64,000 nt of DNA from an uncultured Candidatus Saccharibacteria bacterium (GTDB taxonomy: Bacteria; Patescibacteriota; Doudnabacteria; UBA920), in assembly GCA_964631145.1 (NCBI GenBank), contig CAZVXT010000002.1:1140-65139 (forward strand), given 5' to 3'. Position 1 is the first letter of the stretch. The number at the start of each line of letters is the position of its first letter. The notes beneath the pieces were generated by a model that was not told the DNA's origin, ran no database searches, and was given only the letters and a program-made list of their open reading frames with translations. Made by a program: the position numbers and the translations under genes. Below, one piece after another: positions 1-63,434 of this stretch.

Positions 1-274
1 CAATACCAGAAATTTCTTTAGCCGCATCACAAAAACGTGCGTAATCTGCCTCCTCCGCTGTGTTTGTAGGTCTTTTTGAGAGGTCAGTTGTTCTAATAAC
101 CATCAATGATTTATTTGGAGCGTATTGATCAAGTAATTTCAAAATCCCTACAATTCGTTTTGAATCATATCGGTTGTGTTGCGAGAAATGAAGTCCTCGA
201 TACTTATCGTCAGAGATTCTTTTTGTAATAAACTCTAACGCTTTATTTCCTTGGTTAATATCAATTAATGCCAT
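1..274 (-). CDS. Hypothetical protein, 5' end only. ATG at 272-274 on the minus strand; the ORF runs open to the window start in a frame different from the upstream MTase. Possibly the partner (e.g. nuclease) of the methyltransferases.
   Basis: Manual translation of the reverse complement of 1..274 gives MALIDINQGNKALEFITKRISDDKYRGLHFSQHNRYDSKRIVGILKLLDQYAPNKSL... with no stop. It is not in the ORF track because it runs off the window edge. Confidence 0.3.
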   Translation of the reverse strand, partial: MALIDINQGNKALEFITKRISDDKYRGLHFSQHNRYDSKRIVGILKLLDQYAPNKSLMVIRTTDLSKRPTNTAEEADYARFCDAAKEISGI

Positions 275-1043
275 ATTCTTTGAGATTCTTTTTTGATAAT
301 TCTACATATTTTTTATCCATGTCTGAACACAGATAATTTCTTTGTAACCTGTTGGCGGCTACAGCAGTAGTACCACTTCCAACAAAACAATCCATAACCA
401 GGTCTCCTTTTTTTGAACTTGCCTTAATAATCCTTTCAACTAGGTCAAGAGGTTTTGGTGTTAAGTGACCCATCTTTTGTGTTTTACCGTTTACCTTTCT
501 TTTATGTCTTTCACTTGTTATGTGCCATACCTCGCCACAAAAACGACCCTCAGGGTTCGGAAACCATCTTTTACCATTTTTTAATATGCCTTTTTCTGCG
601 GCGTGTTGCATTCTTTCTGTCGATTCGTAAGGTATTCGAATATCGTTGTAGTTGAAAGTGTGCTTATTTGATTTTGTAAAAAAAAGTATTGTCTCCTGAC
701 CATTACTATATTTTTTCTTTGAAGCGCCCATACCGTCACGTTTATCCCAAGTTATCCAATTTTGAAATACCATTTTTTTTGAAACTAGATACTGCAAAAT
801 AAAAGCAGAGTTGTACGGCGTATTAAATACGTACAAACTTCCATTACTTTTTAATTTATCAATAACCAAATCAAGCCATGCGTAGGTAAAATCCAAAAAT
901 TCCTTTTGAGACCTGAAAGTATCCCAATCAGCCTTATGCATATTATAAGGTGGGTCAATTACAGCAAGATCAATAGAATTATTATCAACCTTTTTAAGGA
1001 AGTCGAAACAGTCTAGGTTGTAGATTTTATTAATTTCTAGCAT
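261..1043 (-). CDS. Beta-class DNA methyltransferase, N6-adenine type. Motif IV (DPPY) precedes a C-terminal motif I (FxGxG).
   Basis: Protein contains 'LAVIDPPYNM' (DPPY catalytic motif) near the N-terminus and 'DCFVGSGTTAVAA' (AdoMet-binding motif I) near the C-terminus. This order is typical of the PF01555 N6/N4 MTase family. Confidence 0.8.
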   Translation of the reverse strand: MLEINKIYNLDCFDFLKKVDNNSIDLAVIDPPYNMHKADWDTFRSQKEFLDFTYAWLDLVIDKLKSNGSLYVFNTPYNSAFILQYLVSKKMVFQNWITWDKRDGMGASKKKYSNGQETILFFTKSNKHTFNYNDIRIPYESTERMQHAAEKGILKNGKRWFPNPEGRFCGEVWHITSERHKRKVNGKTQKMGHLTPKPLDLVERIIKASSKKGDLVMDCFVGSGTTAVAANRLQRNYLCSDMDKKYVELSKKNLKEYGIN

Positions 1044-1880: not shown

Positions 1881-2087
1881 TTATTTTTTCAATTGCTTTT
1901 TTGCAATTTTCACATTTGAGGTTATTTGCAAAAAAATCTCAAGGTCTTTTTCATTAATTCTCCAATAGCCGACCTTTGATGCTTTTAATTTGCCCTCATG
2001 AATGTAGCGAAATACAGAGCGTTCACTAACACGGAGAACCTCTGCAACTTCTTTTGTATTAAGAAATTTTGTAGTCATATTTTTCAT
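1881..2087 (-). CDS. Excisionase / MerR-type HTH DNA-binding protein (Xis-like).
   Basis: 'LNTKEVAEVLRVSERSVFRYIHEGKLKASKVGYWRINEKDLEIFL' is a classic HTH_17/excisionase-family signature. The likely start is MKNMTTKF (ATG at 2085-2087), preceded by AGGAGG 7 nt upstream; the track ORF starts 15 codons earlier. Confidence 0.6.
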   Translation of the reverse strand: MKNMTTKFLNTKEVAEVLRVSERSVFRYIHEGKLKASKVGYWRINEKDLEIFLQITSNVKIAKKQLKK

Positions 2088-2150
2088 TTGGTCTCCTCCT
2101 TCCATTTTAACTTTTATGAAAACATATGTCAAAGTGTGTCATATTGTTTC

Positions 2151-2179
2151 TTGATTAAATAATACGGTGGAGTTATAAT
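2151..2179 (+). promoter_or_regulatory. Sigma-70-like promoter, TTGATT-17-TATAAT, driving the GC-rich RNA and cargo genes.
   Basis: ttgatt (2151-2156), a 17-nt spacer, then tataat (2174-2179). It is divergent from the Xis-like gene. Confidence 0.4.
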
Positions 2180-2186
2180 AAATATG

Positions 2187-2340
2187 CTACCCATAGAAAT
2201 TATCGTACCCGCATAGGGCAGACGCACGTTTTTTGTGTCCAACATAGTTGTGACCAAAGACGGGCAACTGTCCCTGCCACAACTACGCCCTTGCGGCGAT
2301 AGTCTCTGTGGGTAGCCAGGTCAACGGTTGCCCCTTTTTT
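2187..2340 (+). ncRNA. Candidate structured sRNA or cis-acting leader of ~155 nt. It is GC-rich, has a closing 12-bp stem, and ends in an intrinsic terminator.
   Basis: It begins 7 nt after the -10 element. The 5' gctacccataga pairs with the 3' tctgtgggtagc (G-U compatible), and tagttgtg pairs with cacaacta. It ends with gggcaac...gttgcccc+TTTTTT at 2326-2340. GC content is far above the ~33% surroundings. There is no ORF. Confidence 0.35.
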
Positions 2341-2396
2341 GTAATTAGTTAGGCGTACCGATAACTTGATTAATAATTAAAGTTATTCAAACGTCT

Positions 2397-2900
2397 ATGA
2401 AAAATATAATAAAAAATTTGGCGATTACATTTTTATTTGTCGCCATTATGTATGTTTTGTTTGCCTTTGAGAAAGACCTACTTCTTAAAATCGTATTTAT
2501 TTTATTCTTGATTTTTGTTGCAGATTGGATTTGGAGGGTTGTACAAAAAGAACGCATAAAAAATCCTGATTACGTTGCAAAACAGGTAGCAAAAAGTCTC
2601 AAAAAATGGAGAGAGGATGCTAAGTTTTGGATTGATAGACAGAACCCTGAATATATTCAAGCCAACAACCAATTTAATGAATTTGAATCAATATATTTCA
2701 AACTTTGGGAAAAGTTCCTTCATGACAAAAATAAACGACTTGAAATAGTTAGAGACTGGGCAACCTTTATCGAATCGCAGTTAAAAGCATTGGCTATTAA
2801 CTCAGACGACATAGATCCTGAATCAAAAAAGAAGTATGGCTATTTGCAAATAAGGATTGAGGAAATAAAAAAGCGTTTTGATAAGTTGAATAAGGAATAA
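2397..2900 (+). CDS. Hypothetical membrane protein with two N-terminal transmembrane helices and a cytoplasmic helical domain. It is cargo of the integrative element.
   Basis: 167-aa ORF. The N-terminus 'LAITFLFVAIMYVLFAF...IVFILFLIFVADWIW' is hydrophobic. No recognisable family. Confidence 0.55.
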   Translation: MKNIIKNLAITFLFVAIMYVLFAFEKDLLLKIVFILFLIFVADWIWRVVQKERIKNPDYVAKQVAKSLKKWREDAKFWIDRQNPEYIQANNQFNEFESIYFKLWEKFLHDKNKRLEIVRDWATFIESQLKALAINSDDIDPESKKKYGYLQIRIEEIKKRFDKLNKE

Positions 2901-2956
2901 TTTGCCCCAGGGCAAATGTTCGATAAATACTACGTAAAATAGTAAAATGAAGTGAT

Positions 2957-5247: not shown

Positions 5248-6909
5248 ATGAAAAACCCACAAGATAACACAATCAAATACTTTATTTACGCCCGTAAGTC
5301 GAGCGAGGATAAAGAAAAGCAGGTCGCCTCAATTGGTGACCAATTAGAAGTACTAAACAAGGTCGCAAAGCAAAACAAATTAAACATAGTAGAAATTTAT
5401 GAGGAATCACAATCAGCCAAAGAACCAGGCAGACCACAGTTCAATACCATGCTCGCACGAATTGCTAAAGGCGATGCTAATGGGATACTTTGTTGGAAAC
5501 TTGATCGGTTGGCTCGCAATCCTCTTGATGGTGGGCAAATAAACTGGATGGTGCAGAAAGGCATAATTCAAATTATTAAAACCAACGAGAGAGACTACTT
5601 CCCAAGCGATAACGTTCTCATGATGCAAGTTGAGCTAGGAATGGCGAACCAATACTTGCGAGACCTTTCAACTAACGTAAAGAGAGGTTTAGCAAAAAAG
5701 ATACGAGACGGCTGGCTACCAAGTCTTGCACCGATCGGATACTTAAACGATAGAACTAACGAAAAAGGAAACCGTACAATAATGAAAGACCCCGAAAGGT
5801 TTGATATTGTAAGGAGAATTTGGGACCTTGCACTTACTGGAACTTATACAGTCCCACAGTTATGGGAAATAGCCTACAGGGATTTAGGGCTAAGAACAGT
5901 TCAAAGAAAAAACAGTGGTGGTAGACCAATATCAAAAAGCGGAATGTACTCACTACTAACAAACCCTTTTTATTACGGAATGATTCGCTATCCTGAAAAG
6001 ACTGGCGAATTAAACCAGGGCAAACACGAACCAATGATAACGGTCCAAGAATTCGAGCGTGTTCAAGAGATAATGGGCAAACGTGATGCAATACGACCAC
6101 AAAAAGAAACCTTTGCTTTTACAGGGCTAATGAAGTGCGGAAGCTGTGGTTGCTCGATAACTGCCGAGAGTAAAGTAAAGAAATGCAAAAACGGGAATAG
6201 TCACTACTACACGTACTACCACTGCACTAAAAAGAAAGTAGACATTAAATGCGAGGAAAAGTGCGTTGAGGTTAGAAAGTTAGAAGTTATGTTCAAAGAG
6301 AAACTCGCAGATTTACAGATATCAGACGCTTTCAAAGCCTGGGCAATAAAACACTTGCATGAAGTAAGGACCGTGGAAGCAGACAGTAACAAAGTTGCGG
6401 TGAGCGCAGCCTCAAAGGAATTAACCAGCGTATTGGACCAAATACGAGCGTTATCACTTAACTACATGTCTCCGCAAAACATAAACAGATCAATAATGAC
6501 TGAGAGTGAATACCTTGAAATCAAAAACGATTTATTAAAAAAGAAAGGTGCTGCTGAGAATAGAGTTCAATCAACATCAAATGAATTAGAGTCATGGATG
6601 GAATTAAGTGAAAAAACTTTTAACCTCGCATACTATGCAAGCGTTTGGTTTGAAAATGGAACGAATGAGCAACGTAAAGCAATAATGTCTTGTTTAGGCT
6701 CGAACCTCACACTAAAAGACGGAAAAGTCCAACTATACCTGCATCCTTTCCTAGAAACGCTAATTGAAAACAAAAAATCAGTGAGTGTTGAAACGGTCCA
6801 CGCTCGAACCTCCAAAAAGTCAATGATACAAACACAAAACGCCGCTTTCGGCGACGTTTGTACTACTTGGCTCGGGAGCTGGGATTCGAACCCAGGACCG
6901 ATCGGTTAA
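5248..6909 (+). CDS. Large serine recombinase (phage-type integrase). Its 3' end overlaps tRNA-Asn.
   Basis: The N-terminal resolvase catalytic domain is 'YARKSSEDKEKQ...GDQ' with the catalytic Ser and 'LDRLARN'. A recombinase domain and a zinc ribbon 'CGSCGCS...YYHCTKKK' follow. The last ~14 codons lie within the tRNA sequence. Confidence 0.9.
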   Translation: MKNPQDNTIKYFIYARKSSEDKEKQVASIGDQLEVLNKVAKQNKLNIVEIYEESQSAKEPGRPQFNTMLARIAKGDANGILCWKLDRLARNPLDGGQINWMVQKGIIQIIKTNERDYFPSDNVLMMQVELGMANQYLRDLSTNVKRGLAKKIRDGWLPSLAPIGYLNDRTNEKGNRTIMKDPERFDIVRRIWDLALTGTYTVPQLWEIAYRDLGLRTVQRKNSGGRPISKSGMYSLLTNPFYYGMIRYPEKTGELNQGKHEPMITVQEFERVQEIMGKRDAIRPQKETFAFTGLMKCGSCGCSITAESKVKKCKNGNSHYYTYYHCTKKKVDIKCEEKCVEVRKLEVMFKEKLADLQISDAFKAWAIKHLHEVRTVEADSNKVAVSAASKELTSVLDQIRALSLNYMSPQNINRSIMTESEYLEIKNDLLKKKGAAENRVQSTSNELESWMELSEKTFNLAYYASVWFENGTNEQRKAIMSCLGSNLTLKDGKVQLYLHPFLETLIENKKSVSVETVHARTSKKSMIQTQNAAFGDVCTTWLGSWDSNPGPIG

Positions 6910-6942
6910 CAGCCGATAGCTCTACCGCTGAGCTACTCCCGA
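6868..6942 (-). tRNA. tRNA-Asn (anticodon GTT), 75 nt with encoded CCA.
   Basis: The reverse complement is TCGGGAG-TA-GCTC-AGCGGTA-GAGC-T-ATCGG-CTGTTAA-CCGAT-CGGTC-CTGGG-TTCGAAT-CCCAG-CTCCCGA-G-CCA. This is a canonical cloverleaf with a 7-nt anticodon loop and GTT at positions 34-36. Confidence 0.9.
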
Positions 6943-7067: not shown

Positions 7068-8876
7068 ATGAAAAATCAAAATTCATTCAAAAATAAAGAT
7101 ATTTTAAGTGGCGGTTTTACGATAATTGAAGTCGTTATTGGAATCGGTATCCTTATAATTTTACTTGTAGGAGTTTTGGGTGCATATAATTCTTTAACTC
7201 GTTCAACCTTAGGGGCAAGACAGCAGGCAATTATAACTTCATTAGCTGCTCAGAATAGTGAAATTATCAGGAATATGTCATACAGTTCTGTAGGGACTAT
7301 TAACGGTAACCCTAATGGAGTTTTGTCGGATTATAGCAATCCAACTAATGTTACGATTGAAGGTACGGTATATTCAACATATTATGAGGTGGCATATATA
7401 GATGACCCTGCTGATGGTACAATTTTGGCTGGAACAGATCCTGCTCCAAATGACTACAAACAAATAAAGATGTTTGTAAAGAATAATTCTACAAATGTAA
7501 TAACTCCTTTTATTACTAATGTTGCCCCAGCGGGATTAGAAGGACTTAATAATGCAGGGGCTTTAGTTATTAATGTTTTGGATTCTAACGGGCAAGCAGT
7601 TGCTAATGCAAATATTCATATCCAAAGTGTTGGAATATCTCCAGCAATTATTTTGGATCGTCAATCTGATTTAACTGGCAATTGGGTTGAAGTAGGGCTA
7701 CCGGCAGGAGCTAATGCCTATAATATCACTGTGACAAAAAATGGTTATTCTACTGATAAAACATACCCAATTACCTTAGGTAATCCTAATCCTACTAAAC
7801 CAGATTCAACAGTTGTCAATGGTCAGATAACTCAAATCAGCTTTGCTATAGATACGTTGGGTAATTTGACAATAAAGACTTTAAATCAAACTTGCCAGGC
7901 GATTAATGGAATAAATTTGAACGTTGCCGGATCAAAAATTATTGGTAGTACACCAACAGTTTTGAAATATAGCAATAATTTTACTTCATCATCCGGACAA
8001 GTTGCGTTAAATAATATTGAATGGGATACTTATACACCCACTTTATTAACTGGTCAAAGTTATATGGTTTATGGCTCATCGCCAATCCAGCAAATTACTG
8101 TTTTACCAAGTGCTTCCCAAACTTTTTCTCTAATATTAGGACCGGTGTCTACAAATAGTTTGCTAGTAATTGTAAAAGATTCGGCTACGAAGACTGCTTT
8201 AGAAGGAGCTTCGGTGAGATTGACTAATAGTAGTCCTAGCTACGATCAATCTAAAGTAACCGGCGGTAGTATTTGGCAGCAAACAGACTGGACAGGTGGT
8301 TTAGGTCAAGATAATTTTACCGATTCTACAAAGTACAAAACTCAAGATACTAATATTACCACTACTGGGGTGCCTAATGCATTGCGTCTTCAGCAGCTTA
8401 GTGGAAATTATGTTGCAAGTGGTTGGTTAGAATCGTCCAGTTTTGATACTGGTGCCTCAAGTAATTATACAACTATATCTTGGTCACCAGCATCACAAGT
8501 GGCAGGGGCAGTTGTTAAGTTCCAATTAGCTAGTAATAATGATAATACTACATGGAGCTATAAAGGTCCTGACGGAACCTCAGGTTCTTATTATACAATT
8601 GCGGGATCAAATATTGCTGCAGTTCACGACGGTGATCGTTATATTCGTTATAAGGTTTATCTATCAACTTCAGATACTACTAAGACACCTGTGTTAACAA
8701 GTATGGTGATAAATTATGTTTCTGGATGTTTTACTCCAGGACAAGTTATGTTTCCAAGCTTAACAGCTAATAATAATTATTCTGTTAATATTTCTTTACC
8801 TGGATACCAGGATAAAACAGTTAATAATTTAAATATTTCTGGAAATCAAACATTAGAAGTATTGCTTTCACAATGA
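7068..8876 (+). CDS. Large type IV pilin-like / pseudopilin protein with a prepilin-type N-terminus.
   Basis: The N-terminus is 'LSGG|FTIIEVVIGIGILIILLVGVLG': a class III signal, Gly followed by F at +1, Glu at +5, and a hydrophobic helix. It has 602 aa and is Thr/Ser/Asn-rich. Confidence 0.6.
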   Translation: MKNQNSFKNKDILSGGFTIIEVVIGIGILIILLVGVLGAYNSLTRSTLGARQQAIITSLAAQNSEIIRNMSYSSVGTINGNPNGVLSDYSNPTNVTIEGTVYSTYYEVAYIDDPADGTILAGTDPAPNDYKQIKMFVKNNSTNVITPFITNVAPAGLEGLNNAGALVINVLDSNGQAVANANIHIQSVGISPAIILDRQSDLTGNWVEVGLPAGANAYNITVTKNGYSTDKTYPITLGNPNPTKPDSTVVNGQITQISFAIDTLGNLTIKTLNQTCQAINGINLNVAGSKIIGSTPTVLKYSNNFTSSSGQVALNNIEWDTYTPTLLTGQSYMVYGSSPIQQITVLPSASQTFSLILGPVSTNSLLVIVKDSATKTALEGASVRLTNSSPSYDQSKVTGGSIWQQTDWTGGLGQDNFTDSTKYKTQDTNITTTGVPNALRLQQLSGNYVASGWLESSSFDTGASSNYTTISWSPASQVAGAVVKFQLASNNDNTTWSYKGPDGTSGSYYTIAGSNIAAVHDGDRYIRYKVYLSTSDTTKTPVLTSMVINYVSGCFTPGQVMFPSLTANNNYSVNISLPGYQDKTVNNLNISGNQTLEVLLSQ

Positions 8877-9505
8877 TAAAAAATAAAACTCGGCAAATAT
8901 TTAACAAAGGGTTTACTTTAATCGATGTGGTTATATCGGTTGCAATTTTTACTATGATTATTTCGGGAATCATTGCATTAACCTCATCGATATTAGTTGA
9001 TAGTAGTCGTCAAGCCATGACCTTATCTAATTCTGATCAGTCTCGTAAGTTAAGCTTTCAGATTATGCAAGAACTACGAAACGCTAACTATGGCAATGAT
9101 GGTTCTTATCCAATAGCTGGTGCTGATGATCAACAATTAATATTTTTTAGCAATATTGATAGTGATGTGCAAGTAGAGCGTATAAGATATTATTTATCTA
9201 ACGGAAAACTATATAGAGGGGTTGTAGAGCCAACAGGAACTCCACCAACTTATAATACAGCAAATGAAGTTTCTAGAGTTGTACAAAATGATGTAGCAAA
9301 CGGAAGTGTCCCTATATTTTATTATTATCCAGATACATACACTGGTACTGGTAGTGCGTTATCACAGCCTGTCAACTATACAAAAGTGAAATTAATAACT
9401 TTAAATTTACGTGTTTATACCAAAGTGGCAAAAAGCGCTTCGGATTATTTTACAATTCAAGCAAGTACAGCAATACGTAGTTTGAAAAGCAATATAGGAA
9501 GCTAA
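8873..9505 (+). CDS. Pilin-like (minor pilin / pseudopilin) protein.
   Basis: 'NKG|FTLIDVVISVAIFTMIISGIIAL' is a prepilin-like N-terminus with an acidic residue at +5 (D). It overlaps the upstream gene by 4 nt. Confidence 0.55.
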   Translation: MIKNKTRQIFNKGFTLIDVVISVAIFTMIISGIIALTSSILVDSSRQAMTLSNSDQSRKLSFQIMQELRNANYGNDGSYPIAGADDQQLIFFSNIDSDVQVERIRYYLSNGKLYRGVVEPTGTPPTYNTANEVSRVVQNDVANGSVPIFYYYPDTYTGTGSALSQPVNYTKVKLITLNLRVYTKVAKSASDYFTIQASTAIRSLKSNIGS

Positions 9506-29353: not shown

Positions 29354-29740
29354 TGGTGGAGATGGCGGGAGTTAAACCCGCGTCCAAAATTTCTTAACCA
29401 ATTTATTGTTCACAAGATTAGTTCGTTATTTTACTGCATGCCATTCAACGAACAACTAAGCATACAGTTTAAAATACTTCTTTTCGATATTGTTACGTAT
29501 TTCAAATAACAATATTATAGCTTCTATTGTCTAGCTAATCTTTACCCAAAGCAGAGGTAAAGGGCTAGTGCACGAACCAATGTTAGGCAAGTGCAGGTTG
29601 TAGGGTTGCATTAGAAAATGCAGCTACAACTTTGTTCCATGCGTTAGCACGTAAGATTGCTTGTAAGATTAATGAGCTTGCAAGCTGGCTCATCTTGCAT
29701 ATAAAGAGATTGTAAAATTCTGTCAAAATCCAACATCCCC
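29354..29740 (-). ncRNA. ssrA: tmRNA (SsrA).
   Basis: The 5' end GGGGAUGUUGGAUUUUGACAG matches the consensus GGGGcuGAUUcUGGAUUCGAC. The 3' tRNA-like end GGACGCGGGUUUAACUCCCGCCAUCUCCACCA contains the T-arm and ACCA. A candidate tag ORF ...ANAWNKVVAAFSNATLQPALA-UAA is present in the middle. Confidence 0.8.
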
Positions 29741-61589: not shown

Positions 61590-63434
61590 ATGGGACTATT
61601 TTCATTAAATCAAACTGATTTAGATAAAAAAAAGGCGGAGTTAGCCAATTTAAAAGGGCAAATTTCTGCTGATCAAAAATTATCTGAAGTTGAAAAAGAA
61701 TATCAGGAAGGTATTACACAGCTTCAAGATTTGTTAGCCCCAGCTTCTTTAAAGTTTACTGGTTCTTCTTTCGAATTAAACGGTAAGTTTGGACGCAGCT
61801 TTTTTACTTTGGCTTATCCTAGATTTTTATCTTCCAATTGGCTTTCATTTATTATAAATTCTGAAAGTGCTTTAGATGTATCTATGTTTATCTACCCAAT
61901 AGATTCTGAGATTGTTTTAAAAAAGCTAAAGTCAAAAGTTGGAGAGATTGGCTCGCAGATCATGATTGAGCAAGAAAAAGGGTTGGCTCGCAACCCGATG
62001 TTGGAAACTGCTTATCATGATGTTGAGGATTTACGTGACCAATTACAGCAAGGTACCGAGCATTTCTTTAGATTTGGATTGTATTTTACTTTGTATTCCG
62101 ATAGTTTGGAAGAATTAGATAAGAACTCAAAAATATTAGAAAGCGCCCTTGGGGCTAAGTTAGTTGTAACTAAGAGAGCAATGCTTGCAATTGAACCAGG
62201 CTTTAATTCAACATTGCCTTTAGGACTTGATCAGCTAAATGTTGCAAACAACCTCAATACAAGTCCTTTATCAACGACATTTCCTTTTGTATCTTCTGAT
62301 TTAACTGGTAATGATGGTATTTTGTATGGAGTTAACAGGCATAATAATAGTTTAATTTTGTTTGATCGTTTTCAGATGGAAAATGCTAATTTTGTGGTTT
62401 TTGCTAAGTCCGGTGCAGGAAAAAGTTATGCTGTAAAACTAGAAATTTTGCGATCTTTAATGTTAGGTATAGAAATTATTGTCATAGATCCAGAAAATGA
62501 ATATCAGCATTTAGCCGAAGCTGTAGGTGGTACTTATATAAATATATCTTTAAATTCTGATTTTCGTGTTAATCCATTTGATTTGCCAATCGGTATTGCG
62601 GATGAAGACCCTGCAGATACTTTACGAAGTTCTGTAATTAACTTGATGGGCTTGATGGGGCTTGTATTGGGTAAGCTTGATCCTTCAGAGGAAGCAATTT
62701 TAGATAAAGCTATTTGGCAAACTTATGCTAAAAAAGATATTACCGAAAATACTGATTTTAGAAGTGCAGAAATGCCAATTATGAGCGATTTAATTGAAGT
62801 GCTTTCAGGTATGGTAGGTGGAGAAAGTTTGGCTCTTAGATTAGGTAAATTTACTGAAGGGACTTTTTCTGGATTGCTAAATCAACAAACCAACGTGGTT
62901 TTGCAAAATCAACTTTTGGTCTTTTCTATTAGAGATCTTGAAGATCAACTTCGTCCAATAGCTATGTATATTATTTTAGGACATATTTGGAATGTTGTTA
63001 GAAGTGAGCTTAAAAAGCGTATTTTGGTTTTGGATGAAGCCTGGTTGATGATGCAGCATGAAGATAGCGCTCGTTTTGTTTTTGGTATCGCCAAGCGTGC
63101 ACGTAAATACTACCTAGGTTTAACAACTATTACTCAGGATGTGGCGGATTTTATGGCTAGTCCATATGGAAAACCTATTGTTACCAACTCATCCATACAG
63201 CTATTATTGAAGCAAAGCCCTGCGGCAATTGATGTTGTTGCAGAAACCTTCTTTTTGACTGAAGGTGAAAAATATTTATTACTCGAGAGTGATGTTGGTG
63301 AAGGGATATTTTTTGCTGGATTAAAGCACGCAGCAATAAAAATTTATGCTTCTTATGTCGAAGATCAAATTATTACTACTGATCCAAAACAATTATTAGA
63401 AATAGAAGCCAGTAAAGAAGACTTTAATAATTAG
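61590..63434 (+). CDS. VirB4/TrbE/CagE-family type IV secretion ATPase (C-terminal 614 aa).
   Basis: The Walker A is 'FVVFAKSGAGKSYAV' and the Walker B is 'RILVLDEAWLMM'. 'TITQDVADF' and a CagE_TrbE_VirB-like region lie upstream. Confidence 0.85.
   Translation: MGLFSLNQTDLDKKKAELANLKGQISADQKLSEVEKEYQEGITQLQDLLAPASLKFTGSSFELNGKFGRSFFTLAYPRFLSSNWLSFIINSESALDVSMFIYPIDSEIVLKKLKSKVGEIGSQIMIEQEKGLARNPMLETAYHDVEDLRDQLQQGTEHFFRFGLYFTLYSDSLEELDKNSKILESALGAKLVVTKRAMLAIEPGFNSTLPLGLDQLNVANNLNTSPLSTTFPFVSSDLTGNDGILYGVNRHNNSLILFDRFQMENANFVVFAKSGAGKSYAVKLEILRSLMLGIEIIVIDPENEYQHLAEAVGGTYINISLNSDFRVNPFDLPIGIADEDPADTLRSSVINLMGLMGLVLGKLDPSEEAILDKAIWQTYAKKDITENTDFRSAEMPIMSDLIEVLSGMVGGESLALRLGKFTEGTFSGLLNQQTNVVLQNQLLVFSIRDLEDQLRPIAMYIILGHIWNVVRSELKKRILVLDEAWLMMQHEDSARFVFGIAKRARKYYLGLTTITQDVADFMASPYGKPIVTNSSIQLLLKQSPAAIDVVAETFFLTEGEKYLLLESDVGEGIFFAGLKHAAIKIYASYVEDQIITTDPKQLLEIEASKEDFNN

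Follow-up and report, generated by a model that had tools for sequence, protein, structure and literature searches.

What is encoded by a GC-rich, non-coding segment at the head of the conserved gene arm of a small integrative element, and what might it do there? The segment lies in a 64,000-nucleotide (nt) stretch of contig CAZVXT010000002.1 (positions 1,140 to 65,139 of the forward strand; GenBank assembly GCA_964631145.1) from an uncultured Candidatus Saccharibacteria bacterium; this whole stretch is called the window below, and position 1 is its first letter. The element sits at tRNA-Asn and carries a gene for a large serine recombinase. Within it, positions 2186-2341 of the plus (+) strand specify a structured RNA of 156 nt that ends in a U-tract. 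A preliminary description of the locus had proposed a discrete multi-stem RNA here, transcribed from a promoter of its own and ending in a U-tract, and we found all of these features within 1 nt of where it had placed them. We tentatively propose, giving the idea slightly less than an even chance, that the RNA is a cis-acting, folding-dependent termination gate that would also yield a compact terminated RNA.

A Structured RNA Outside the Described Families

The 156-nt RNA has a minimum free energy of -64.1 kcal/mol, compared with -41.3 ± 3.9 kcal/mol for 200 dinucleotide shuffles, none of which equals it (z = -5.82), in agreement with the folded structure first suggested. Its GC content is 52-53% against a window average of 34.6%; thus, the segment is indeed richer than its surroundings, but not at the 55-60% originally given. 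The + strand of 2186-2341 reads GCUACCCAUAGA...UCUGUGGGUAGC CAGGUCA ACGGUUGCCCCUUUUUUG and has stops in every frame, so that the earlier statement that the segment contains no open reading frame (ORF) holds for this strand; on the minus (-) strand, a 42-amino-acid (aa) ORF with a TTG start (2129-2257) overlaps it, but is mechanical rather than meaningful.

The sigma-70-type promoter upstream of the RNA (Table 1) has its -10 box 6 nt from G2186, the predicted transcription start. The distance from the -10 box to the GCUACC segment is exactly 6 nt in 10 variants of the main family despite their differing promoter sequences; promoter-like sites at the matching place include TTGATT-17-TATAAT in locus L012 and TTGAAA-17-TAAGAT in locus L011. 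The exception is L030, with a 7-nt spacing and an extended -10 box. Since the spacing is constant even where the promoter sequence differs, the RNA would start at its first paired nucleotide.

A search of the whole window with the 4227 models of Rfam 15 at gathering thresholds returned only transfer-messenger RNA (tmRNA) and tRNA elsewhere and nothing at the RNA. At E <= 10 on positions 1900-2600, no match fell within 2186-2312, and the only matches overlapping the 3' edge were weak ones to eukaryotic families (RUF1 at 2313-2432, 13 bits; mir-2558 from 2340). ARAGORN and Rfam together found only tRNA-Asn (6868-6942) and tmRNA (29354-29740) and gave no tRNA-like or tmRNA identity to the RNA. 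The covariance model of the RNA recognizes a single copy in the 64-kb window (157.5 bits). The Rfam check proposed in the preliminary description therefore matched no family, and every membership test that could be run was negative, barring the generic features of an intrinsic terminator and of competition between the closing helix P1 and a terminator, which are described below. Judged by these comparisons, the RNA is a previously undescribed structured family, outside every described family.

Distribution of the RNA in Related Elements

Homologues of the 294-aa protein encoded downstream of the RNA form 23 clusters, all from metagenome assemblies, and led to syntenic elements; a pattern scan of metagenomes added only loci L018 and L019. 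The RNA was thereby recovered in 12 distinct versions from about six lineages, namely those of the window, L005/L025, L018, L012, L010, L011/L019/L032, L021, L030, and the chimera-like L027. The left arm of the elements varies, whereas the right arm is conserved and contains the RNA, a membrane-protein gene, a gene for a 285-294-aa protein, a replication-initiator-like gene, and the gene for a large serine recombinase next to a tRNA gene. The integration sites are tRNA-Asn genes, but tRNA-Gln for L010. With the exception of L033, the RNA is present at the equivalent place wherever the upstream sequence of a locus is long enough.

Searches of other sequence collections yielded no further members. 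BLASTN of positions 2140-2400 against GenBank phages and PLSDB plasmids gave only chance matches of about 35 nt, and a TBLASTN search with the 294-aa protein had no phage or plasmid match. IMG/VR pattern scans with three motifs produced only chance matches in GC-rich coding DNA (L001, L020, L034-L037), a related-locus search of viral contigs with the 167-aa and 294-aa proteins found nothing, and a recombinase search of genome contigs returned only a 23%-identical Wandonia protein, which is uninformative.

Conserved Secondary Structure and Covariation

All versions of the RNA share one architecture, which consists of a helix P1 of 19-20 base pairs (bp), a helix P2, and a three-way junction bearing a variable P3 and a sequence-conserved P4 (Table 1). 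In the window, P1 comprises 19 bp and begins at nucleotide +1, so that the 5'-terminal nucleotide is paired; its outer part joins gctacccataga (2186-2197) to tctgtgggtagc (2305-2316). In a model-based alignment of 10 versions, 95% of the cells of P1, P2, and P4 are paired, 12 pairs have changes on both sides, and 41 cells are changed on both sides, compared with 15 ± 3 in shuffles; when the partner strand is slid by 1-3 columns, pairing falls to 37-47%. By helix, 97% of the cells are paired in P1 (18 pairs counted, six with changes on both sides) and 91% in P2 (nine pairs, three changed on both sides), while P4 occurs in the compensatory versions ACGUUGUG/CACAACGU (L005), GCGGUUUG/CAAACCGC (L021), and CUGAUUUG/CAAGUCAG (L030). 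L030 also has three compensatory changes in outer P1 pairs that are otherwise invariant (UUCACCCAC/GUGGGUGAA). The junction segments J1/2, J2/3, and J3/4 vary in both sequence and length; conservation lies mainly in the helices.

Among the pairs of the helices (chimera L027 excluded), G·U occurs 35 times and A·C only twice; the functional molecule is therefore the RNA of the + strand and not DNA or the opposite strand. The version at L027 (777-933) joins a 5' half of the window type to a 3' half of the L005 type, so that inner P1 and part of P2 are unpairable (-50.9 kcal/mol). Either the assembly joined two sequences here, or a natural recombination event has disrupted the structure. The three helices named in the preliminary description, the outer one, tagttgtg/cacaacta, and gggcaac/gttgccc, are all real, and each is kept by covariation in relatives; the structural conservation it had asked for in homologous regions is seen as compensatory changes among the 12 versions.

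A Long-Range Pseudoknot That Includes the U-Tract

The third of these pairings had been read as a terminator stem, formed by gggcaac and gttgccc and followed by TTTTTT. The complementarity of gggcaac (2262-2268) to gttgccc (2327-2333) is real, with TTTTTT at 2335-2340, but the two strands lie about 58 nt apart and cross P4, P2, and P1, and thus form a pseudoknot rather than a hairpin stem; the canonical terminator hairpin is a different one, which pairs 2310-2317 with 2326-2333. The gggcaac/gttgccc core extends to a helix of 18 positions, here named X, between 2254-2271 in the P4 loop and 2324-2341 in the 3' tail (Table 1), and the U-tract thereby pairs with A-rich sequence upstream. Nearly every version pairs 16 of the 18 positions, and the L011 lineage pairs 15. 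In an alignment of segments anchored on the GGG and CCC motifs, which was built after the pairing had been noticed, seven distinct versions show seven pairs with changes on both sides, none of 500 shuffles reaches the observed values, and pairing is 89% compared with 38-60% in slid controls.

Changes in the core of X include A-U to G-C replacements. In L012 and L010, a C that breaks the U-tract (UUUCUU) pairs with a G that replaces an A of the upstream strand. Other lineages have G·U at this position. The tail of L030, AUCUGUAU, pairs with AUACUGAC through four compensated positions, and a terminator scan of L030 found neither a U-tract nor a terminator. X is thus selected as a helix and not merely as a terminator. 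In the P1 state, the pseudoknot core contributes roughly a further -18 kcal/mol, with no loop penalty counted.

L033, the most distant element in which the search detected no family member, has a different structured RNA (741-866) at the equivalent position, with a long P1 and a three-way junction. The ends of its P1 are similar (GUACCCAUUCAC/GUGAAUGGGUAC-AGGAC), but it has no helix X and no match to the covariance model, and a segment further upstream, GAAUGGGU, is a possible competitor for the same strand. As with the window, no Rfam family matches the versions at L030 and L033.

Alternative Terminator Hairpin

The 3' strand of P1 and the 3' tail can also form a canonical terminator hairpin (Table 1). 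It has the anatomy of an intrinsic terminator, with 8 pairs and an 8-nt loop followed by CTTTTTTG, and L030 lacks it. A terminator scan found it in the window, L011, and L012 with loops of 6-8 nt, and it can form in 10 out of 10 main-family versions with 100% of the cells paired. The hairpin shares positions 2310-2316 with the outer 7-8 bp of P1 and excludes both outer P1 and X; thus, the RNA has the mutually exclusive closing helix and terminator that characterize transcriptional riboswitches. Forcing the hairpin costs 2.4-5.3 kcal/mol relative to the state with intact P1, a low cost because the inner 12 bp of P1 and the remaining fold are kept.

A further segment, CUGCC, is invariant in 12 out of 12 variants though unpaired when X is formed, which fits the existence of a second functional conformation. 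It can pair locally with GGCAR (2263-2267), where the R position is paired in 5 out of 10 variants and faces C as an A in the other five. These pairings make up two self-consistent states, one with full P1, the pseudoknot, and free CUGCC, and another with shortened P1, the terminator hairpin, a local GGCAR/CUGCC hairpin, and the 5'-terminal 7 nt free.

Read-Through Leader and First Downstream Gene

The first gene downstream of the RNA starts at ATG 2397, and a promoter scan found no promoter-like site between 2342 and this codon. The gene differs by lineage and encodes a membrane protein of 150-170 aa, a hydrophobic peptide of 31 aa, a lipoprotein, or a 93-aa ORF product, yet it is always present and intact. 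Being intact, conserved, and devoid of a promoter-like site of its own, it must be expressed by read-through. The 167-aa protein of the window has no Pfam, PHROG, or PADLOC match; its AlphaFold2 model (predicted local distance difference test, pLDDT, 76.9) is all helix, and its structural matches are only generic helical bundles and hence uninformative.

In all lineages, the RNA and the start codon are some 55 nt apart and an AU-rich hairpin precedes the codon, although the sequences differ. The hairpin lies 10 nt upstream of the ATG in the window, and at the equivalent place it reads CCUGAAUU/AAUUUAGG in L012, L010, and L018 and GUUUAUA/UAUAAAC in L011. It may be a translational element of the read-through leader. 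In its DNA form (CCTGAATT/AATTTAGG), the hairpin of L012, L010, and L018 holds an AGGA Shine-Dalgarno sequence.

In L030, a copy of the P1 5' strand (GUUCACC in the RNA, GTTCACC in the DNA; 6444-6463) stands directly before the start codon of the first ORF. A 10-bp pairing of this copy with the P1 3' strand is possible (-14 kcal/mol, a value matched by 0.3% of shuffles), which suggests, by analogy with riboswitch families, that the same switching strand controls translation here and that the platform of L030 is translational rather than transcriptional.

Behind the stop codon of the 167-aa gene, a conserved hairpin, TTTGCCCCAGGGCAAA, occupies 2900-2917 (+) without a U-tract on the + strand. 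It is followed by a conserved promoter-like site, TCGATA-17-TAAAAT (2920-2948, +), which ends 8 nt before the ATG 2957 of the 294-aa gene and thus implies a second, nearly leaderless transcription unit made up of this gene and those downstream.

A Proposed Termination Gate

Our observations cover the promoter and strand of the RNA, its fold with covarying helices P1, P2, P4, and X, its mutually exclusive pairings, and its syntenic position. On them we build the following model, in which the regulation of termination and its trigger are the proposed part. The RNA would be the first thing transcribed from the rightward promoter of the element. Its 3' segment GGYUGCCC would have a choice of two partners, either the P4 loop, giving X, or the 3' strand of outer P1, giving the 8-bp terminator hairpin before the U-tract. 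Whether the 5'-terminal 7-8 nt hold or free the P1 3' strand would decide which structure exists when RNA polymerase reaches the U-tract. Terminated transcripts would become a compact RNA with both ends buried in helices, while in read-through transcripts it would form the leader of the membrane-protein gene that follows, and perhaps also of the replication and recombination genes beyond it.

It is possible, though we regard it as doubtful, that the RNA represents a new class of self-contained switch on integrative elements of uncultivated bacteria. In such a class, a pseudoknot lock that includes the U-tract would be set against terminator release, a protein, RNA, polymerase, or ligand signal would be sensed to gate the rightward genes, and distant members would use the switching strand on translation.

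Several points weigh against the termination gate. The combination of P1 and X is the clear thermodynamic ground state, and the terminator hairpin shows only changes from G-C to G·U, none of them compensatory. Because X resembles a terminator composed of A-tract, stem, and U-tract, termination could be constitutive and the RNA a stable small RNA (sRNA); there may also be steric strain when an 18-bp helix X and P4 are formed together. Conservation of the junction nucleotides is poor, and since the 12 versions fall into about six lineages, some of the covariations may be single events. L030 is tied to the family only by a 27-bit model match (E = 4e-4) and by synteny. Finally, the promoter-like site before the 294-aa gene may limit any effect in cis to the first gene.

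To our knowledge, almost no regulatory RNAs have been described in mobile elements of uncultivated low-GC bacteria, and the present RNA would add a well-supported structured family to the elements of these poorly studied organisms. Its design is unusual in that the 3' half of the terminator and the U-tract are part of a covarying long-range pseudoknot that rivals a conventional terminator hairpin, which makes it a compact test case for how co-transcriptional folding of RNA decides termination. The RNA also marks the regulatory center of tRNA-targeting serine-recombinase elements with variable defense-type cargo, and understanding it could show how such islands stay quiet or become active. If termination turns out to be constitutive and the RNA no more than a stable leader or sRNA, it would be a routine new RNA motif.

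Comparison with Known RNA Systems and Alternative Explanations

The preliminary description had favored an sRNA that regulates functions of the element. A stand-alone RNA of this kind, constitutively terminated and acting in trans on element or host transcripts or proteins, possibly as an immunity RNA of the IsrK, P4 CI, or P1 c4 type, is in our estimate unlikely, even though the locus has its own promoter and U-tract and the fold spans the whole molecule, beginning at +1 and reaching the point where termination is expected, so that both ends are buried. Helix X likewise has the succession of A-tract, GC-stem, and U-tract found in intrinsic terminators (CCAAAGA, then GGGCAACUGU/ACGGUUGCCC, then UUUUUU); unlike in these, its "loop" measures 52 nt and is itself paired upstream, giving a pseudoknot, and X is kept where the U-tract has been replaced. 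As a precedent, leader-derived RNAs of prophages and satellites act in trans on the read-through transcript (PMC4825925). Gifsy-1 IsrK, P4 CI, and P1 c4 (PMC4825925) share with the present RNA their origin in a mobile element from the promoter of the operon that they precede, the short terminated and read-through forms that would also exist here, repeated complementary modules (GGGYAG-like and CURCCC-like), and a place adjoining the regulatory region of the element. The present RNA differs from them in that it has no sequence or model similarity to them, no downstream target repeats were found, it has a three-way junction and a pseudoknot, and its hosts are uncultivated low-GC bacteria. What speaks against action in trans is that no conserved complementary site of at least 10 nt occurs in nine elements, that the ground state leaves almost no conserved single-stranded seed, that L030 keeps the fold without a U-tract or a terminator, and that C4 and the other sRNA families of Rfam are unmatched; the lack of a promoter at the first downstream gene points instead to a cis-acting leader or attenuator. 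An antisense immunity RNA of the P1 c4/P4 CI type was rejected as a candidate on two of these grounds, the missing Rfam match and the missing complementary target of at least 10 nt in nine elements. The segment CCTGCCACA, which the RNA shares with the 285-aa gene, was rejected as a trans target, since it is same-sense and encodes a conserved LPH motif.

The conserved helices with their invariant sequences would also suit contact with a protein. The RNA could be the partner or scaffold of an element protein (the 294-aa, 64-aa, or 82-aa protein, the O-like initiator, or the recombinase) in replication priming or in the control of copy number or recombination, a role that we consider quite improbable. 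The strict linkage of the RNA to the 285-294-aa gene family in every recovered locus, and the invariant aromatic and basic residues of that family, which matches nothing known, would fit such a partnership, but this very protein was the route to the loci, and the linkage therefore carries a bias. The structural model of the 294-aa protein is unusable, no complementarity of at least 10 nt exists between the RNA and the tRNA attachment region, and we know of no serine recombinase that uses an RNA. Still less probable is a processive antitermination RNA analogous to HK022 put or the Bacillus EAR, which would stay with its polymerase and let it read through its own and later terminators. Like these, the present RNA is structured and opens the operon of a mobile element (here of early type, from +1) immediately ahead of a terminator; polymerase contact could likewise explain its invariant helices, and EAR contains a pseudoknot as well. 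It has, however, no homology to either and a different architecture, neither the eps-associated RNA nor any other Rfam family matches, and no clear intrinsic terminators were found further down the operon, where only the hairpin at 2900-2917 comes into question.

In our view, a riboswitch that senses a metabolite or an ion and controls the downstream membrane protein has a fainter chance yet. In common with attenuating riboswitches and leaders, the RNA is a leader from +1 with a junction closed by P1 and has a P1 3' strand that can be shared with a terminator hairpin followed by a U-tract; the pseudoknot, the membrane protein encoded by the regulated gene, and L030, which appears to use a translational platform that occludes the start codon, would also be in keeping with it. 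The main weakness of this explanation is that conservation resides in the helices, whereas nucleotides of the junctions and loops vary. Typical aptamers show the reverse pattern, and a conserved junction pocket is not apparent here. Moreover, the regulated genes differ (167-aa membrane protein, 31-aa peptide, lipoprotein, 93-aa ORF), the RNA is confined to one mobile-element family, no riboswitch or other family of Rfam matches, and, unlike in the known leaders, an internal loop pairs over 18 positions with the terminator 3' half and the U-tract to give a pseudoknot. A DNA-level feature such as a cruciform, an origin, or an inverted repeat bound by a protein is scarcely credible. Long inverted repeats do lie beside operator-like GTGTCA direct repeats and in an element with a replication-initiator-like gene, but the excess of G·U over A·C makes the pairing strand-specific, the promoter and U-tract are precisely placed, and the pseudoknot topology has no counterpart in DNA.

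Further candidates were rejected. A retron msr-msd would account for the terminal inverted repeat (P1), but no reverse-transcriptase domain was found in nine neighbors (Pfam, PADLOC) and none was seen in the related loci. An IS110 bridge RNA or IS1111 seekRNA is at odds with the recombinase, which is of the large serine and not the IS110-type DEDD kind. As for the role of such RNAs as recombinase guides, the RNA has no match of at least 10 nt to the tRNA attachment region in any of six elements, one of them at a different tRNA. An early kinetic trap between the 5' end of the RNA and the P4 loop is, judged by eye, not conserved in L030.

Genomic Context of the RNA

The coordinates of the RNA, its signals, and the neighboring genes of the element are given in Table 1.

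Table 1. Features of the RNA locus and of the surrounding element (window coordinates).
Feature	Position	Strand	Sequence or remarks
Sigma-70-type promoter of the RNA	2151-2179	+	-35 TTGATT (2151-2156), 17-nt spacer, -10 TATAAT (2174-2179)
P1, 5' strand	2186-2205	+	GCUACCCAUAGA, bulged A, AUUAUCG
P1, 3' strand	2297-2316	+	CGAUAGU, C, UCUGUGGGUAGC; outer part GGGUAGC is the partner-switching segment
P2	2209-2219 with 2287-2296	+	CCGCA U AGGGC / GCCCU UGCGG
P3 hairpin with U-rich loop	2221-2239	+	Variable; shortened or absent in L011, L019, L021, and L010 (single-sequence folds)
P4	2245-2252 (UAGUUGUG) with 2278-2285 (CACAACUA)	+	tagttgtg / cacaacta
Helix X, 5' strand	2254-2271	+	CCAAAGAC GGGCAACUGU; inside the P4 loop
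Helix X, 3' strand	2324-2341	+	ACGGUUGCCC C UUUUUUG; 3' tail including the U-tract 2335-2340
CUGCC segment	2274-2278	+	
Alternative terminator hairpin	2310-2333	+	GGGUAGCC (2310-2317), 8-nt loop, GGUUGCCC (2326-2333), 8 bp, then U-tract
AU-rich hairpin	2361-2386	+	AUAACUU ... AAGUUAU; part of the read-through leader
First downstream gene	2397-2900	+	167 aa, all-helical, N-terminal membrane anchor
Divergent promoter	2104-2132	-	TTGACA-17-TAAAAT; serves the HTH_17 gene and the leftward methyltransferase operon
HTH_17 gene	1881-2087	-	Heads the leftward operon; matches PADLOC mad1 (methylation-associated defense, 5e-10)
Two N6/N4 DNA methyltransferase genes	1046-1876, 261-1043	-	Left arm
294-aa gene	Starts at ATG 2957	+	Right arm; no known domain
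64-aa ORF		+	Right arm
178-aa HTH_36 protein gene		+	Right arm; resembles phage O-type replication initiators
82-aa ORF		+	Right arm
Large serine recombinase gene	5248-6909	+	553 aa; Resolvase, Recombinase, and Zn_ribbon_recom domains
tRNA-Asn	6868-6942	-	ARAGORN/Rfam

The preliminary description had located the RNA between an Xis gene and the cargo genes. The HTH_17 gene that it took for Xis in fact heads the leftward operon of variable cargo, and what lies to the right of the RNA is not cargo but the conserved backbone. In the left slot of the related elements, the genes are type III restriction-modification-like, encode an ABC transporter, or belong to the SLFN/AlbA_2 kind; given this variable cargo in the slot behind it, HTH_17 is probably the controller of the cargo arm rather than an excisionase. 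The promoter of the RNA and the leftward promoter stand back to back in the window, and L012 is arranged likewise. Between the divergent promoters, TGTCA direct repeats one helical turn apart (ATGTCAAAGTGTGTCAT; about 2127-2143, +) overlap the leftward -35 box and are kept in nearly all relatives. These repeats are likely an operator.

In the right arm, the 294-aa protein belongs to a family rich in invariant aromatic and basic residues; a profile search against the PDB gave no match, and the AlphaFold2 model mentioned above reaches a pLDDT of only 49.6. At the right end, the recombinase ORF terminates inside the 3' half of tRNA-Asn, antisense to the tRNA, and thus the element supplies the 3' end of the tRNA.

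The rest of the window is ordinary chromosome, with genes for ribonucleotide reductase, ArgRS, IleRS, and PcrA. Adjoining tRNA-Asn, positions 7068-9505 (+) encode large proteins (602 aa and 210 aa) whose N-terminal segments are of the prepilin type, which suggests a type IV pilus or pseudopilin cluster. The tmRNA gene (-) encodes the tag peptide AFSNATLQPALA. Near the right end, a gene at 61590-63434 (+) encodes a VirB4-like conjugation or DNA-import ATPase, possibly belonging to a second mobile element or a competence system.

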